34,028 nucleotides of DNA from Polyangiaceae bacterium (GTDB lineage Bacteria > Myxococcota_A > Polyangia > Polyangiales > Polyangiaceae). Below, piece by piece: positions 1,981-6,750 of this stretch (its first letter is position 1; the number at the start of each line of letters is the position of its first letter). The position numbers and the translations under genes are program-made. The notes below the pieces were generated by a model, which saw only the letters and a list, made by a program, of their open reading frames with translations, searched no databases and was not told the DNA's origin. Where the stretch lies: the NCBI GenBank assembly GCA_044358965.1, contig JBIKNA010000022.1:1-34028 (forward strand), in the 5' to 3' direction.

Positions 1981-2393
1981 CCGGAGGCATTTGGGATGCA
2001 CCGCGGGCGGAGCGCAAAGAGCCCACCATCACGGATCTCTTCGGGCGACTGGCCTCGGACTCAGGCACGCTGCTGCGCCAACAGGTCGAGCTCGCTACGG
2101 AGGAGATGGGGGAGAAGGTTCGCATCGCCGGGCGCTGGCTCGCGGTCATGGCCGCGGGCACGGTGCTCGGTGTCGCGGGGGTGATGTGCCTCGTGGTTGC
2201 AGCCATCTTTGGGCTTGGCACCGCCATGCCGCTGTGGGCCGCGGCGCTCGTGGCCGGTGGCGTCCTTGGGGTCGTGTGTGCGGCGTCCGGGGCCGTGGCC
2301 TACCGCGCGCTCCTCCGTCTGGACCTGACGCCCCGACGAACACTTCGAACGTTGAGAGAGGACCGGTTATGGGTGCAAGAACAGTTCCGATGA
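1977..2393 (+). CDS. DUF1469 'phage holin family' / YqjE-like inner-membrane protein
   Basis: 138 aa. The N-terminal motif TITDLFGRLASDSGTLLRQQVELATEE is followed by two hydrophobic helices (LAVMAAGTVLGVAGVMCLVVAAIFGL / LWAAALVAGGVLGVVCAASGAV), the typical DUF1469 layout. Translationally coupled to the upstream gene. Confidence 0.65.
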   Translation: MTGGIWDAPRAERKEPTITDLFGRLASDSGTLLRQQVELATEEMGEKVRIAGRWLAVMAAGTVLGVAGVMCLVVAAIFGLGTAMPLWAAALVAGGVLGVVCAASGAVAYRALLRLDLTPRRTLRTLREDRLWVQEQFR

Positions 2394-3451
2394 GGGGGAT
2401 CAAGCGCGGCTCGGACAACGATGTCGAGCGCAGAACTTCGCTCGATACGGCCATCGCACGATCGCGCTCGAACCTTGGCGAGACCATCGAAGCATTGCAT
2501 GGGCGGCTGCGCCCGGCTGCGTTTCGTGAAGACGTCATGAAGCAATTTCACGAGGCCAAAGAAACGCTCAAGAGTGAACTCAAAGGTGATCTGTTGGAGG
2601 CCAAGGGCGCCCTCCGACACGCCACCATCGGAAAGGTCGAGACCATGATCCACAGCACACAAGACTCGGTCAGCGCGACGGGGCAGTCCGTTCTCGATAC
2701 CATCAAACAAAACCCCGTTCCGTCGGCCTTGGTGGGCATCGGCCTTCTCTGGATGTTCGCCCGCAGTGGGGAAAGGCGCCGCATCGGCGTGCGCGTGGCG
2801 GACCATGCGCCCTTGCGGGGACCCGACGGCTGGAGTGCCGGAAGTGGCCCCCTTCCGCGTGCATCGAGCGAACTCGGGCACATGGCGGAAGAGGCGCAAA
2901 AGACCGCAGTGCAGGCCGCGCACGAGGCACGTGAGGCCGTGGGCACGCTCGCCGGCAACATCAAGGTGTCCGTGGGTGAGGCCCGCCATGCCGCATCCGA
3001 CAAGCTCAGTGCCTTGGCCCACGACGCCGGAGATCGCGTTTCGCACGCCGCGCACGATGCGCAAGACCAGGGGCGAAAGCTTGGCGGGCGCGCGCAGGGG
3101 GTCTTTGAGCGGAACCCTTTGGCGGTGGGCGCGCTGGTGCTTGCCGCGGGCGTCGCCGTGGGCCTTGCCATTCCGATGTCGCGCAAAGAAACACGGTGGA
3201 TGGGCGCTGCCAGCAAGCAGCTGCGCAGCAAGGCCGAAGTGCTCGCGCGGGATGCGTTTGCCAGCGCCGAGGGAGCGGCGCAGCAGCTCGACTGGAGCCG
3301 CCCGCCGCCGGCCACGCGATCGTCGCCCCGGCCTCCGGAAGTGGCCGAGGACTTTGGCGCCAGCGCAGCCTCCGTCAAGACGCCGTTGGGCGGAATTTAT
3401 GTGCCGCGGCTCGGTGGCGCCAAAGAGCTGGACGGTCCCGGCCATACCTGA
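2369..3451 (+). CDS. DUF3618 domain protein with a C-proximal TM segment and a long low-complexity tail
   Basis: The N-terminus ERRTSLDTAIARSRSNLGETIEALHGRLRP resembles the DUF3618 signature (S.eeI..dIe.tR..L..t.dAL). A later hydrophobic segment NPLAVGALVLAAGVAVGLAIP is present. GAGAGAGGA lies 7 nt upstream of ATG 2369 (alternative ATG at 2390). Overlaps the preceding gene by 25 nt. Confidence 0.6.
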   Translation: MGARTVPMRGIKRGSDNDVERRTSLDTAIARSRSNLGETIEALHGRLRPAAFREDVMKQFHEAKETLKSELKGDLLEAKGALRHATIGKVETMIHSTQDSVSATGQSVLDTIKQNPVPSALVGIGLLWMFARSGERRRIGVRVADHAPLRGPDGWSAGSGPLPRASSELGHMAEEAQKTAVQAAHEAREAVGTLAGNIKVSVGEARHAASDKLSALAHDAGDRVSHAAHDAQDQGRKLGGRAQGVFERNPLAVGALVLAAGVAVGLAIPMSRKETRWMGAASKQLRSKAEVLARDAFASAEGAAQQLDWSRPPPATRSSPRPPEVAEDFGASAASVKTPLGGIYVPRLGGAKELDGPGHT

Positions 3452-3522: not shown

Positions 3523-3972
3523 TCAGTGACCGCGAGACAAGAAGATGCGGTACGTCAGGTACCCGAGGATGACCGCACACATCACCACGGCGGTAACGTT
3601 CCACATGAGCGGCGTTTTGGTGGGGGCCTGGGTCTTGGTCGACAACAGAAGCTGCGTTGCCGCCATGACCACGCCGTTCAGCCGCTTCTGCGCCAATTCG
3701 CGCTTGGCCTCGTCGTCTTTGAAGGGCCCTTCGGCGTCCGTGAGCGCCTTGTAGAGCCCCGCTGTTTCCGGGAGCTTGTGCGTGCGCACGGCGTACTCGA
3801 TCAGCGCATGGTGCGGCTTGTCGTCAGGCCAAGCGTCGAGCACGCGATCCCATAGCGCGTCGAAGCCGGCATCTCCGGTGCCCGCGCTGGGGCCCGACGC
3901 GGGCGCTGCACTCGGGTCTCCCTCGCCGTCCTTCGCCACTGCTCCCGTCGGCACGAGTTCTTCTTCGCTCAC
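3523..3972 (-). CDS. hypothetical tail-anchored membrane protein (acidic, low-complexity N-terminus with a single C-terminal TM)
   Basis: 149-aa ORF. Its GTG start overlaps the dtd stop (GTGA). The C-terminal hydrophobic helix is VTAVVMCAVILGYLTYRIFL. Codon bias is consistent with the flanking genes. Confidence 0.5.
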   Translation of the reverse strand: MSEEELVPTGAVAKDGEGDPSAAPASGPSAGTGDAGFDALWDRVLDAWPDDKPHHALIEYAVRTHKLPETAGLYKALTDAEGPFKDDEAKRELAQKRLNGVVMAATQLLLSTKTQAPTKTPLMWNVTAVVMCAVILGYLTYRIFLSRGH

Positions 3973-4427
3973 GAGGACATCTCAGCGGATTTCTGGCTGT
4001 CGATCCAGATCGTGATGGGACCTGCGTTCTCCGAGAGCACGCGCATATCGGCGCGAAACACCCCAGTGGCCACCCGGAGTTGCGTGCGGGCCTCGGCCAC
4101 GAAGGCCTGGTAGTGGGCTTCGGCCTGCGCAGGTTCCATGGCGCCCTCGAAGCTCGGGCGATTGCCCCGGCGCACGTCGCCAAAAAGTGTGAACTGACTC
4201 ACCACGAGGAGTTCCCCTTTGGTGTCGAGCACGCTCTTGTCGAGCTTACCGGCATCGTTCTCGAAGATGCGCAGGTTCAACACTTTGCGAAGGATGTAGG
4301 TCCGGTCTGCCGCCGTGTCCCCGGTACCGACGCCGAGATAGACGAGTAGCCCCGGGCCAATGGTGCCGACGGTCTCCCCGGCGACCACCACCTGGGCATG
4401 GTTGACCCGCTGCACGACCGCGCGCAT
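3969..4427 (-). CDS. dtd: D-aminoacyl-tRNA deacylase (D-Tyr-tRNA(Tyr) deacylase)
   Basis: 152 aa, MRAVVQRVNHAQVVVAGETVGTIGPGLLVYLGVG...SQFTLFGD...GNRPSF.... The Dtd hallmarks are present: the QRV start, the SQFTL motif and NGPVT-like GPIT. The start was counted from the ORF-track frame. Confidence 0.9.
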   Translation of the reverse strand: MRAVVQRVNHAQVVVAGETVGTIGPGLLVYLGVGTGDTAADRTYILRKVLNLRIFENDAGKLDKSVLDTKGELLVVSQFTLFGDVRRGNRPSFEGAMEPAQAEAHYQAFVAEARTQLRVATGVFRADMRVLSENAGPITIWIDSQKSAEMSS

Positions 4428-4855
4428 CAGCCAACGGCCTCGGGCAGGCGAAGTTCTCGCGCCAGCGCCTTCACGATGCGGAAGTAGTCTTCGCGGCTGT
4501 AGGGCTCGTTCAAGATGTGGAAGTCTTTCCGCGAGAGCCCGACGCAGCCAAAGCAGTATGTGCAGTCTACACACTGTGTGCAGCGAGCAAGGTACTTGCT
4601 TCGCGCGCAGCGCTGGCACTCCACGCAGTGAGAGCAATCGTTGCAGTGGTCGCTGCGAACGCAGTGCGAGCAATTGGTGCAATCTGCACAGTTGCGGCAG
4701 TGGCTGCAGCCAAAGAGCCGCTTGCTGTCGCTGCAAAAGGTGCAAGCAGAGCAGGCCACGCAGCCCGTGCAGGCCACGCAGCCGGTATTCTCTTGGCTCT
4801 GTTCGGCGGCTTTCTGGAGCTTGCCCAGACGCTCTTGGAACTGTCGTGCATCCAT
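4427..4855 (-). CDS. small cysteine-rich protein (22 Cys, in four runs with Cys at every third residue) with a non-Cys C-terminal tail
   Basis: 142 aa, MDARQFQERLGKLQ...CVACTGCVACSACTFC...CSHCRNCADCTNCSHC...CNDCSHCVECQRC...CTQCVDCTYCFGC...FHILNEPYSREDYFRIVKALAREL. Its stop TGA shares the A with the dtd ATG (TGATG), so the two are translationally coupled. GC3 is typical. No recognisable family. Confidence 0.55.
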   Translation of the reverse strand: MDARQFQERLGKLQKAAEQSQENTGCVACTGCVACSACTFCSDSKRLFGCSHCRNCADCTNCSHCVRSDHCNDCSHCVECQRCARSKYLARCTQCVDCTYCFGCVGLSRKDFHILNEPYSREDYFRIVKALARELRLPEAVG

Positions 4856-4988
4856 GTGACAGGCGGCATGGTGCCCGCTTGCCCAAGAAAAAGCGTGCGA
4901 CAAATTTGGGTGCGCCGAGAGAGATGTAGGACAGTGTGGCCAACCGGGGCTTCCGACCCCGTCGAACCGCTGCCATCTGGAGGATCTC

Positions 4989-6236
4989 ATGAAAGCTTTT
5001 GCCTCGCTGCTCGCTCTCGCCATCGCCCTCGCCCCCGCCGCTGCGCTCGCCGAGACCGCGGCCCCCGAAGCCGGCATCAAGACCGAGAGCCCCGCGCCCA
5101 AGAAGGACGCGAAGAAGCGCCAGCATTCCAAGACCCAGCCCAGCCGCCGCGCGCACACGCAGCAGCACAAGGACGTTGTGACCGTGTCCACCCGCTCCGT
5201 GCAGAAGGCTCCCAAAGAGAGCAAGAGCCACGGCGCCGACAAGGGCCCCAAGAAAGAGTCCAAGAGCGACAAGAAGAACGACTCGAAGCACCCAGCAGGT
5301 AGCTCAGCCTTCGATCACGATCACGCCGCCGAGCCCAAGGCCCAGCTCGGAAGTCGCGGCGATGGTGTAAAGGACCTGGAGCCCTTGCCCACGCCGGAGG
5401 TCGCCCCCAAGACGGCGCACCCCCGTTCGCATGGCGTCAAGCGCGTGTCCCTGCCGGAGCCCAAGTCCCTGCCGGAGCCCAAGAAGGTTGACGAGCCGAC
5501 GGGCTCGTCTCACGCCGGTGGACCCGTGGCGCCCAAGGCACCTAGCAAAGGCAAGGGAGCCGCCAAGGTGGCCAAGGCCGCCGCCGGTGCCAAGACCGAC
5601 GCGCCGCAGGCCAAGAAGTGTTTCAAAGAGGCCGTGACTTTCTTGCGCGGCGCCGAGGTCGACAGCTTTCCGCTGCAGCAATGTGACGGAACCCTGGCGC
5701 CCCTCGCGGTAGAGCACCTGTCCATCATGTTGCGGCCGCATGGCGTCGACAAGCCCGCAGGCTCCCTGGAGCACCTTGCCCGAGAGCACCAGAAAGATCA
5801 GAACCTGGCGCCCAACTTGAGGAAGATCGATGCGCGTTTGATCACGCGTCTCGGGGAGATCCTCGAGGCCACGCACAAGGGCAAGGCTGCCAAGGTCTCC
5901 ATCGTGTCGGGCTATCGACCGCAGTCCCAAGGCAGCCAGCATTCGCTGGGGCGCGCCATGGACTTCCGCATCGACGGCGTCGACAACGAGCGCATCGTGC
6001 AGGCGTGCAAAGGCATGGCCGACGTTGGCTGTGGGTTCTACCCCAACAGCTCCTTCGTGCACCTCGATGTTCGTGACGCAGGCACGGGACATGTGTCCTG
6101 GATCGACGCGAGCGGCCCCGGCGAGGCGCCCAAATACGTGACCGCCTGGCCGCCCCCCGCCGCCGCGGCAGCGGAGACCCCGGCTTCGGCCATGGTGCCG
6201 GAGGCCGACGCAACGGAAAGCCAGGGCCAGCAATAA
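4989..6236 (+). CDS. secreted DUF882 / peptidase M15-like (YcbK family) protein with a Lys/Pro-rich linker
   Basis: Sec signal peptide (MKAFASLLALAIALAPAAALAET), GGAGG 6 nt before the ATG, and a long K/P/E-rich low-complexity region. The C-terminal domain has SGYRPQSQGSQHSLGRAMDFRIDGV...GFYPNSSFVHLDVRD, matching DUF882/Peptidase_M15_3 (SGYRS..N....S.H..G.A.D...GVGYYPRSGFVHVDVR). Confidence 0.75.
   Translation: MKAFASLLALAIALAPAAALAETAAPEAGIKTESPAPKKDAKKRQHSKTQPSRRAHTQQHKDVVTVSTRSVQKAPKESKSHGADKGPKKESKSDKKNDSKHPAGSSAFDHDHAAEPKAQLGSRGDGVKDLEPLPTPEVAPKTAHPRSHGVKRVSLPEPKSLPEPKKVDEPTGSSHAGGPVAPKAPSKGKGAAKVAKAAAGAKTDAPQAKKCFKEAVTFLRGAEVDSFPLQQCDGTLAPLAVEHLSIMLRPHGVDKPAGSLEHLAREHQKDQNLAPNLRKIDARLITRLGEILEATHKGKAAKVSIVSGYRPQSQGSQHSLGRAMDFRIDGVDNERIVQACKGMADVGCGFYPNSSFVHLDVRDAGTGHVSWIDASGPGEAPKYVTAWPPPAAAAAETPASAMVPEADATESQGQQ
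5447..5482 (+). repeat. 18-bp perfect tandem repeat x2 (tccctgccggagcccaag) inside the DUF882 gene linker
   Basis: Read directly from the sequence. It encodes SLPEPK-SLPEPK. Confidence 0.7.
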
Positions 6237-6337: not shown

Positions 6338-6379
6338 GGGAGCGCGGGAATCATCCTGCGCTCCCTTCGTGCTATTTGG
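6338..6379 (+). terminator. hairpin plus T-rich tail in an AT-rich island; candidate intrinsic terminator for the DUF882 gene or a 5'-UTR structure of the glutaredoxin-like gene
   Basis: gggagcgc-gggaatcatcct-gcgctccc is a perfect 8-bp stem, followed by ttcgtgctatttgg. It is embedded in an unusually AT-rich 80 bp (acaacaacacttattcttagctttt). Confidence 0.35.
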
Positions 6380-6384
6380 ACCCC

Positions 6385-6750
6385 ATGACCAGGCCATTGC
6401 TCCACGCAGACCGTGTTCGCGAACCCGCCCGTGCGGCCGTAGCGGCGTTCCATGCAGATGTCGTCGCCGAGGTCGTCGCCGCCGTGGAGACCGAGCCCGT
6501 GGTCATCGTGGGCATGGCGCAGAACCCCGTGGTCAAGCGCGCACGCAAGCTGCTCACCGAGGCACAGATCCCCTTCAAGTACCTCGAGTACGGCAGCTAC
6601 TTCTCCGACTGGAAAAAGCGCCTTGCCATCAAGCTCTGGGCCGGTTGGCCCACGTTCCCCATGGTGTTCGTCAAGGGCAACCTGGTGGGCGGCGCCGACG
6701 AAACCGAGAAGGCGTTGGCCGACGGGGCCATCAAAGAGCTTCTTGGCTAG
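6385..6750 (+). CDS. glutaredoxin-fold protein (Grx-like, no active-site Cys visible)
   Basis: About 121 aa. The sequence VVIVGMAQNPVVKRARKLLTEAQIPFKYLEY...WPTFPMVFVKGNLVGGADE...LL parallels monothiol Grx (VVLFMKG...C.FS...L...gv.f...nil.d.....WPTiPqlyi.GefvGG.D) but has AQNP in place of CGFS. The stop TAG overlaps the stop of the convergent rhodanese-ThiF gene in the palindrome CTAG. Confidence 0.5.
   Translation: MTRPLLHADRVREPARAAVAAFHADVVAEVVAAVETEPVVIVGMAQNPVVKRARKLLTEAQIPFKYLEYGSYFSDWKKRLAIKLWAGWPTFPMVFVKGNLVGGADETEKALADGAIKELLG

Follow-up and report, generated by a model that had tools for sequence, protein, structure and literature searches.

A putative cysteine-lined beta-helix protein encoded in an overlapping three-gene operon with Dtd and a predicted tail-anchored protein in a Myxococcota-type genome

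The narrow, disulfide-braced beta-helix is a fold known from an insect antifreeze protein, the secreted TmAFP (PDB 1EZG/1L1I; Pfam AFP, PF02420), whose 12-residue tandem turns follow the consensus TCTxSxxCxxAx, with two cysteines and one i,i+6 disulfide per turn and a Thr-x-Thr ice-binding ladder. Beta-solenoids built from very short repeats also occur in the bacterial cytoplasm; the pentapeptide-repeat proteins Qnr and MfpA, for instance, point one residue of each repeat side inward and serve as rigid surfaces for interactions. Among cytoplasmic proteins, CxxC motifs are densely spaced in the CxxCxGxG zinc-finger domain of DnaJ, in the bacterial metallothionein SmtA and in 4Fe-4S ferredoxins. 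Metallothioneins are short and Cys-rich, have few or no aromatic residues and flexible spacing, and fold only around metal. Here we describe a bacterial protein that, as predicted, shares its 12-residue tandem turns and narrow right-handed beta-helix with TmAFP, and its cytoplasmic location, very short inward-facing repeats and possible action as a rigid interaction surface with the pentapeptide-repeat proteins; its dense CxxC spacing makes DnaJ, SmtA and the ferredoxins a plausible analogy for how its thiols may be used. The gene lies in a 34,028-nucleotide window, the whole stretch of DNA that we analyzed, from contig JBIKNA010000022.1 of a Polyangiaceae bacterium.

Direct reading of the sequence identified three minus-strand ORFs (4855–4427, 4427–3969 and 3972–3523) chained through TGATG and GTGA overlaps. 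The first of these (gene 1, 4427–4855) encodes the 142-residue Cys protein; it starts with an ATG at 4855–4853 and ends in a TGA at 4429–4427 that has one base in common with the ATG of dtd (4427–4425), forming the TGATG junction (4425–4429). The TGA of dtd (3971–3969) in turn overlaps the GTG start (3972–3970) of the third gene, forming the GTGA junction (3969–3972), and this 4-nt overlap is identical in the gene-caller predictions for loci L083–L088. The first-pass annotation had described a tightly coupled three-gene operon, and this was borne out by near relatives, the nearest being Polyangiaceae MAGs, in which both the gene order and the overlaps match; the minus-strand region 4855–3523 is thus a real three-gene operon of a Myxococcota-type genome, with adjacent reading frames joined by stop/start overlaps. 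Upstream, a 133-bp divergent intergenic region (4856–4988) separates gene 1 from a DUF882/Peptidase_M15_2 gene on the plus strand (4989–6236; ORF map and Pfam) and presumably contains the operon promoter, a position that we infer, as a consensus scan found no sigma-70 sites. A terminator scan yielded two sites where chance alone would give 1.3, neither of them convincing for the operon, and the window contained no tRNA or Rfam elements and no paralog.

The first-pass annotation had noted 22 cysteines at every third position in four runs (residues 26–41, 50–65, 71–83 and 92–104); the runs as quoted were exact, and the lattice proved stricter still. All 22 cysteines fall in residue class 2 mod 3 (chance ~1e-10 given 22 Cys), and the 28 positions reached from residue 26 to 107 in steps of three are occupied by 22 Cys, 3 Ser and 3 Leu. 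This segment (4535–4780, minus strand) corresponds to the predicted beta-helix of seven 12-residue turns, for which the consensus is C-[ST]-[FYH]-C-x-x-C-x-x-C-x-x; in the core, Cys/Ser occupy positions 1 and 7 and either Cys or Leu/Val positions 4 and 10, while position 3 forms an outward ladder of F40, H52, H64, H76, Y88 and Y100. Across the family the same 28-position core has almost only C/S in columns 1 and 7 and C/L/V in columns 4 and 10. On the surface, conservation is confined to column 3 and the C-terminal block, and the other outward columns vary. The turns are preceded by an N-terminal helix (residues 3–18; 4802–4849, minus strand; AlphaFold secondary structure and alignments) with an invariant L13 and with F6 kept in ≥90% of members. 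The best-conserved block of the family, CxYCFGCVGLxxKDFHILNxPYxRxxYF (residues 98–125; 4481–4564, minus strand), consists of invariant and near-invariant columns that span the last turn and the C-terminal cap, and a helix (residues 121–134) follows the cap block.

At the DNA level, a 15-nt exact direct repeat, GCAGGCCACGCAGCC (4751–4783, plus strand; copies at 4751–4765 and 4769–4783), codes for GCVAC twice within the first turn. Short repeats present twice near 4770–4810 had been reported from the first reading; the repeat does exist, and is smaller and slightly displaced relative to that description. The accompanying suggestion that the Cys array could be length-variable was contradicted by the alignments, since 198 unique family members had 0 indels over residues 26–107, and in near relatives the repeat segment differed by substitutions only, with its length unchanged.

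Comparison with two near relatives gave pN/pS values of 0.13–0.17 for gene 1, with 50 of 73 and 53 of 76 differences, respectively, at codon position 3, and we conclude that it is a real gene under purifying selection specific to its frame. Searches identified 233 database homologs of ~50% identity, which matched over the full length and started identically at MDARQF, and relatives were present in at least 568 species genomes. An exhaustive profile search returned 2,971 cluster representatives (50% identity, E ≤0.001), some of which are probably composition-driven. The peptide patterns YCFGCVGL and DFHILN recovered family members from genome contigs. All 80 loci retained for inspection were Myxococcota-type, and gene 1 belongs to a large family without a name that was observed here in Myxococcota-type genomes alone. 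Orthologs were also seen in Myxococcaceae and Anaeromyxobacter (loci L043 and L027). The possibility raised at first reading that the Cys ORF would lack conservation at dtd loci did not materialize; the gene is conserved, with dtd directly downstream in 36 of 82 related loci. The protein had been called novel, and with respect to Pfam (E up to 1) and NCBIfam this holds, with zero matches; a Pfam scan of 121 family members likewise gave no match at E up to 0.01, cluster look-ups gave the family no name, and the family was absent from a full-text literature search, in which the one apparent match (PMC2938197) was irrelevant. The Cys module is also carried by long multidomain paralogs, 20 of which showed no informative Pfam domain except for an S-AdoMet lyase domain in one of them (P0251); among the long paralogs are proteins with a disordered tail and a C-terminal SLRRGRRP-like motif. 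We rejected an anti-phage defense or phage family, as PADLOC had no match for either the Cys protein or the tail-anchored protein, PHROG gave one weak match of unknown function restricted to the Cys array, and a scan of 2.9 million viral contigs found no relative. A DNA mimic was also rejected, based on a net charge of ~0.

For gene 1, AlphaFold confidently predicted an N-terminal helix followed by seven beta-helical turns of 12 residues, and a fixed seven-turn beta-helix of the Tenebrio-antifreeze type, plus the N-terminal helix, is predicted for every member of the family. A Foldseek search of the model against the PDB found nothing at E ≤0.001 and only generic beta-helices, and the predicted fold may itself be an echo of the antifreeze template pattern. 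As the N-terminus is hydrophilic, helical and unlike a signal peptide, the product is predicted to be cytoplasmic. In this the family differs from the secreted insect protein, and there are further differences: four cysteines per turn rather than two, an aromatic/His ladder in the place equivalent to the TCT/TxT ice-binding ladder, an additional N-terminal helix, an invariant C-terminal cap, and no match to the Pfam AFP model. The resemblance to TmAFP may be convergent, and an ice-binding function was rejected given the cytoplasmic location and the missing TxT ladder.

The middle gene (dtd, 3969–4427, minus strand) encodes a 152-residue D-aminoacyl-tRNA deacylase (DTD1). Its product matches the full Pfam Tyr_Deacylase profile PF02580 (2.4e-53, 180.8 bits against a cut-off of 25) and the TIGR00256 equivalog (1.2e-44, 152.3 bits against a cut-off of 101.5), and has in common with DTD1 proteins the SQFTL and NxGPxT motifs (VVSQFTLFGD and NAGPIT in the translation). 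The enzyme itself is an ordinary Dtd, notable only for its position between two uncharacterized genes. That position is found in ~40% of the related loci; among the 36 loci with dtd directly 3' of the Cys gene, 34 had a tight junction (a 4-nt overlap in 17, a 1-nt overlap in five and a gap of ≤10 nt in 12 more). The stop/start overlaps suggest translational coupling that would tie Dtd expression to the pair formed by genes 1 and 3, although they do not demonstrate a common biochemical pathway for Dtd and the pair. A specific link to Dtd, as implied by the first-pass annotation, is not what the wider comparison indicates: the tail-anchored partner is the more frequent neighbor, and the 46 of 82 loci without dtd led us to reject an obligatory functional coupling of the Cys protein to Dtd. 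The Dtd linkage is probably of modest importance.

Gene 3 (3523–3972, minus strand) encodes a protein of 149 residues predicted, from its homologs and AlphaFold topology, to be a tail-anchored inner-membrane protein. In the AlphaFold model, residues 1–33 are disordered and hydrophilic, residues 35–112 form a helical domain, and a helix spans residues 123–147 of 149, giving five predicted helices, four of them in the soluble portion and the fifth close to the C-terminus. The helical domain, delimited as residues 34–112 (3637–3873, minus strand) and predicted to be cytoplasmic, has invariant L40, W41, W48, H54, L67, A71, Y74, D87 and A105, and the C-terminal transmembrane helix (3532–3606, minus strand) coincides with the hydrophobic stretch MWNVTAVVMCAVILGYLTYRIFL, in agreement with the C-terminal hydrophobic segment seen at first reading. 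The predicted combination of a single C-terminal transmembrane helix, no signal peptide and a cytoplasmic N-terminal domain corresponds to a tail-anchored topology, and the homologs share this layout. The family has 359 homologs, with lengths of 90–160 residues among the 120 matches listed, and public assemblies contain a protein (P0121) identical to the gene 3 product. Gene 3 matched nothing in Pfam or NCBIfam, and a Pfam scan of 111 family members was likewise empty. Homologs of gene 3 adjoin the Cys gene in 55 of the 82 loci, more often than any other neighbor; in the other 27 the gene is absent nearby, about a dozen of these loci belonging to a separate clade with an unrelated context.

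Annotated neighbors of the Cys gene across these loci were dtd, the tail-anchored protein, Peptidase_M15_2 (nearby in 30 loci), Grx-like, ThiF-rhodanese, PdxA and Tol-Pal genes, the latter as an OmpA/Pal-like gene with TolQ, TolR and TolB downstream in ~26 loci. The recurrence of Tol-Pal, the DUF882 peptidase and Dtd suggests a housekeeping role that involves the cell envelope or D-amino acids; mere inheritance of gene order could also account for the envelope link.

On balance we lean, with somewhat better than even confidence, toward the Cys protein being a thiolate solenoid held by metal or redox chemistry that docks on a membrane partner, a function that we infer. The predicted helix leaves no room for a hydrophobic core, and there is no signal peptide; its ~20 stacked thiols are therefore most likely held together by bound metal, in layers of up to four cysteines, or by reversible disulfide bonds. 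The cysteines are, however, less strictly conserved than typical obligate metal sites: no more than 12 of the 22 positions reach 90% conservation among members, and the total per protein ranges from 15 to 24. The product would be a rigid rod that responds to redox state or metal. Its conserved ladder and cap may bind the cytoplasmic domain of the tail-anchored partner, on the cytoplasmic side of the inner membrane; gene adjacency alone suggests this docking. A bolder and unlikely extension is that the seven layers, each with up to four inward thiolates, enclose metal ions in an unbroken column, or a metal–sulfur chain of extended length. Such a protein-sheathed thiolate 'wire' would represent a metal-binding fold not described before. 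With the tail-anchored partner as its tether to the inner membrane, it might be used by Myxococcota to sense redox state or metals, or to transfer electrons at the membrane.

Several other readings of the cysteines were considered. A metallothionein-like buffer, which would sequester or store Zn, Cu, Cd or reactive oxidants in bulk and need no specific partner or surface, would suit a cytoplasmic protein in which cysteine makes up 15.5% of residues and the loss of single Cys positions is tolerated. We nonetheless regard it as unlikely given the indel-free lattice and confidently predicted rigid fold, the conserved aromatic/His ladder, the invariant non-Cys C-terminal motif and the conserved membrane partner gene, and because the Pfam metallothionein families were unmatched and no metal-resistance genes were identified among the annotated neighbors. 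The likeness to TmAFP invites the reading of an oxidized beta-helix with i,i+6 intra-turn disulfides, a purely structural rod without metal or redox switching, which we consider quite unlikely for a cytoplasmic protein without a signal peptide whose four cysteines per turn exceed the need of one disulfide per turn. The alignments also point away from it: the conserved C41 and C101 face conserved leucines at i+6 (L47 and L107), and covariation joins i,i+3 pairs, which are gained or lost jointly (C44–C47, phi 0.72; C68–C71, phi 0.56), rather than i,i+6 pairs of the antifreeze type (65–71, phi -0.27). That the CxxCxxC runs ligate several iron–sulfur clusters, with the membrane partner anchoring an electron-transfer module, is distinctly improbable; although the spacing recalls ligands one to three of a ferredoxin motif and the partner is membrane-anchored, none of the 121 members had a Fer4-type Pfam match, the alignment contains no CxxCxxCxxxCP motif ending in Cys-Pro, a beta-helix is predicted instead of a ferredoxin fold, and redox enzyme genes were not consistently adjacent. 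More broadly, no member of the 121 had a Pfam match to the DnaJ zinc finger, SmtA or ferredoxins, and those proteins have neither the strict period of three that gene 1 sustains for 82 residues nor its predicted beta-helix and conserved non-Cys cap.

Two readings deny the Cys ORF a role as a folded protein, and both fare poorly against its conservation. With 22 Cys codons directly 5' of dtd and conserved overlaps onto its start, the ORF could act mainly as a cis-acting leader that senses Cys-tRNA supply and gates dtd translation; this is very improbable in view of the loci without dtd downstream, the strong constraint on non-Cys residues reflected in the low pN/pS, and the presence of the same module in long multidomain paralogs. 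The unusual composition, the overlap of the ORF by others on the opposite strand, and its omission by gene callers in public assemblies of the same DNA could be taken to indicate either a RiPP-like precursor peptide or a high-GC antisense artifact in which dtd alone is real, both of which had been raised at first reading. We give these hardly any credence: the frame-specific purifying selection (pN/pS 0.13–0.17) led us to reject the artifact, hundreds of homologs share a fixed length, and near relatives have the gene called. We also rejected a RiPP precursor, as all 142 residues are conserved and confidently predicted to fold, with no leader/core architecture, and no maturase-type genes (radical SAM, YcaO or Lan-type enzymes) are nearby.

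If the prediction is correct, these genes would represent a widespread and wholly unannotated bacterial protein family, in which a narrow antifreeze-like beta-helix has a core made up of cysteines and resides in the cytoplasm, a reducing environment. This raises the structural-chemistry question of what keeps ~20 stacked thiols together, and such a compact scaffold would be of possible interest for metalloprotein design. That the Cys ORF went uncalled in public assemblies illustrates that standard gene callers can overlook genes of this kind. For myxobacterial geneticists, the conserved pair of a Cys helix and a tail-anchored protein, often located beside Tol-Pal and Dtd, would provide a concrete target.

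Direct reading of the minus strand bore out the three ORFs and the two junctions proposed in the first-pass annotation: gene 1, encoding a 142-residue Cys-rich protein (ATG at 4855 to TGA at 4429-4427), dtd (152 residues, ATG at 4427-4425 to TGA at 3971-3969) and gene 3, encoding a 149-residue tail-anchored protein (GTG at 3972-3970 to 3523), with one base in common between gene 1 and dtd (TGATG) and a four-base overlap between dtd and gene 3 (GTGA). The three genes are a real operon in which each stop codon overlaps the next start codon, and these overlaps suggest that Dtd expression is translationally coupled to that of the Cys/tail-anchored pair. Judged from its sequence, dtd is a canonical DTD1. 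The gene 3 family (359 proteins, the 120 listed being of 90–160 residues) had no Pfam match; in the AlphaFold model of the gene 3 product (mean pLDDT 70), residues 1–33 are disordered, four predicted helices within 35–112 carry the invariant L40, W41, W48, H54, L67, A71, Y74, D87 and A105, and a predicted transmembrane helix (123–147) lies at the C-terminus.

Comparative evidence indicates that the Cys ORF is a genuine gene, the rivals weighed here being a leader of Cys codons and a RiPP precursor or artefact. Between gene 1 and two near relatives, in which the Cys gene is ~85% identical and the tail-anchored protein 80–87% identical, third codon positions account for 50 of the 73 and 53 of the 76 nucleotide differences, and pN/pS, which ranges from 0.28 to 2.7 in the five other frames, is 0.17 and 0.13 in the frame of gene 1. 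A database search identified 233 full-length homologs (45–56% identity), and when one genome per species was scanned, at least 568 genomes had a relative. All 80 loci kept for inspection were Myxococcota-type, most of them labeled Polyangiaceae, Myxococcales, Myxococcota, Labilithrix, Anaeromyxobacter or Myxococcaceae and the remainder carrying older deltaproteobacterial, Proteobacteria/Pseudomonadota or uncultured-bacterium labels. The homolog search returned no identical protein because gene 1 is uncalled in the public assemblies of the same DNA: the ORF is present base for base in four Logan assemblies (L083:4118-4546, and likewise L084 to L086), each with a 562-bp gap without a called gene between the M15 peptidase gene and dtd, while its ortholog is called as a gene in the near relatives L087 and L088. 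The GC3 of gene 1 is 0.76 versus 0.79–0.85 in neighboring genes, with local GC dipping to 0.60, and this slightly lower GC3 may be a reason that it went uncalled.

The placement of Cys at every third residue held up, and proved stricter than had been described: the 22 Cys of gene 1 (residues 26–41, 50–65, 71–83 and 92–104) all fall in one residue class modulo 3 (chance probability ~1e-10), and the 28 positions counted by threes from residue 26 to 107 hold 22 Cys, three Ser and three Leu. The short DNA repeats reported within the array do exist, at small size, as an exact 15-mer direct repeat (4751-4765 and 4769-4783) that encodes GCVAC twice. An AlphaFold model built with 121 sequences (mean pLDDT 80; 10-residue block means of 92–97 over residues 31–90) predicts helices at 3–18 and 121–134 and, between them, one short strand per 12 residues from 28 to 102, and the 12-residue register gives seven repeats of the consensus C-[ST]-[FYH]-C-x-x-C-x-x-C-x-x. 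The predicted fold is a beta-helix of the antifreeze kind, with 12 residues per turn and Cys in its core. Among 198 unique sequences there were no indels in residues 26–107; core columns 1 and 7 held only Cys or small residues, chiefly Ser, and columns 4 and 10 held Cys or Leu/Val. A HMMER alignment with the Tenebrio molitor antifreeze protein (TmAFP), a narrow disulfide-braced beta-helix with 12-residue turns, places the TmAFP disulfide Cys in columns 4 and 10, while columns 1 and 7 take the TmAFP Ser and Ala, which fits an inward orientation of all four lattice columns. Of the outward columns only column 3 is conserved, forming a ladder of F40, Y/H52, H64, H76, Y88 and Y100; the others are variable, and the net charge is near zero. 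The most conserved stretch in the family is the last turn and cap (CxYCFGCVGLxxKDFHILNxPYxRxxYF).

No gene 1 family member scanned matched Pfam or NCBIfam. Gene 1 belongs to a large, unnamed family of constant architecture: an exhaustive profile search gave 2,971 cluster representatives at E-values up to 0.001, of which 864 reach 1e-10 or better; composition probably accounts for some of the weaker matches. Many were proteins of 250–775 residues that share the N-terminal helix, beta-helix and cap; in these long paralogs, which had no Pfam domains, a long disordered acidic/Pro-rich tail comes after the cap and has a basic SLRRGRRP-like motif at its end. Six of these long paralogs (P0178, P0191, P0197, P0222, P0181 and P0183) carry an FH(V/I)LN cap and then a GWRP motif before the disordered tail, and the distant profile match P0251 (836 residues) has an S-AdoMet lyase domain along with five stretches of Cys repeats. 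A scan of viral contigs found no relatives there; phrog_15341, a PHROG phage family of unknown function, matched weakly (E 2.7e-7) over the Cys array only (residues 22–107).

Across 82 related loci, dtd lies immediately downstream of the Cys gene in 36 and a gene 3 homolog adjoins it in 55, the classes being the tail-anchored gene only (28), both companions (27), dtd only (9) and neither (18). Where dtd is present, its start overlaps the Cys stop by 4 nt (17 loci) or 1 nt (five), or follows it at 0–10 nt (12) or 38–49 nt (two). By these counts and spacings, the gene order seen in the window is conserved, but the Cys gene is accompanied more often by the tail-anchored gene than by dtd; the pairing of the Cys and tail-anchored genes is conserved, and the insertion of dtd is frequent, not universal. 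Recurrent neighbors are a roughly 200-residue unannotated protein upstream (31 loci), a downstream OmpA/Pal-like gene with TolQ, TolR and TolB after it (~26), and DUF882/Peptidase_M15_2 (30), ThiF-rhodanese (24) and PdxA (19) genes. At L001:5373-11046 and ~25 other loci the Cys gene and its partner sit between the roughly 200-residue protein and the OmpA/Pal-like-TolQ-TolR-TolB cluster, the head of the Tol-Pal region being the site of the pair in many Polyangia-type genomes; in P0136 this upstream protein and the Cys protein seem to have been fused by read-through. The window itself has no Tol-Pal genes, and its M15 peptidase gene is transcribed divergently from gene 1. Between that gene and a rhodanese-ThiF (MoeZ/MoeB-like) gene, a position conserved in relatives, lies a plus-strand gene (6376-6750) for a glutaredoxin-fold protein with a weak Pfam Glutaredoxin match to the C-terminal part of the profile only and no CxxC or CGFS active-site motif seen. 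Convergent with the operon (1991-3451, plus strand; equivalents at L083:5522-7586) are three small membrane or coiled-coil genes, encoding a DUF3618-like/apolipoprotein-like protein, a Phage_holin_3_6 family protein and a 197-residue protein, followed by a methyltransferase gene and pdxA.

Because so narrow a helix cannot accommodate a hydrophobic core and the protein resides in the cytoplasm, the core would most likely be a thiol stack organized by metal ions or reversible S-S bonds; we weighed this against a ladder of disulfides alone, a metallothionein-like buffer and an Fe-S carrier. Cys is kept in at least 90% of members at twelve positions, with 15–24 Cys per protein, and the variable Cys come and go jointly at i,i+3 spacing (44-47, phi 0.72; 68-71, phi 0.56), while the antifreeze-type i,i+6 pair 65-71 has a phi of -0.27. 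Among the 198 family members Cys26 is nearly exclusive of Cys44 and Cys47 (phi -0.68 and -0.87), which may reflect compensating movement of core Cys to another site or just a paralogous lineage; in the clade that this pattern defines (S26/C44/C47), to which the cultured Anaeromyxobacter and Myxococcaceae genomes belong, most loci have neither dtd nor the tail-anchored gene as a neighbor. The tests run place the Cys protein outside the ferredoxins, DnaJ zinc fingers, pentapeptide-repeat proteins, RiPP precursors and defence proteins, and it is probably not a metallothionein. The likely docking surface for the tail-anchored membrane partner would be the conserved ladder and cap, and the envelope-related neighbors hint at the physiological setting. 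We hold the gene, family and fold with high confidence and consider the metal/redox-docking mechanism a tentative and rather doubtful proposal; the explanation as a whole, from operon to docking, we judge slightly better than an even bet.

The Cys protein works like, or at least resembles in shape, TmAFP; however, it does not have the sequence, secretion and ice-binding features that define the TmAFP family, and is therefore not a member. It would instead be a cysteine-braced 12-residue beta-solenoid whose cellular setting and partner are new, and the gene 1 family is a real, widespread and unannotated structural curiosity.
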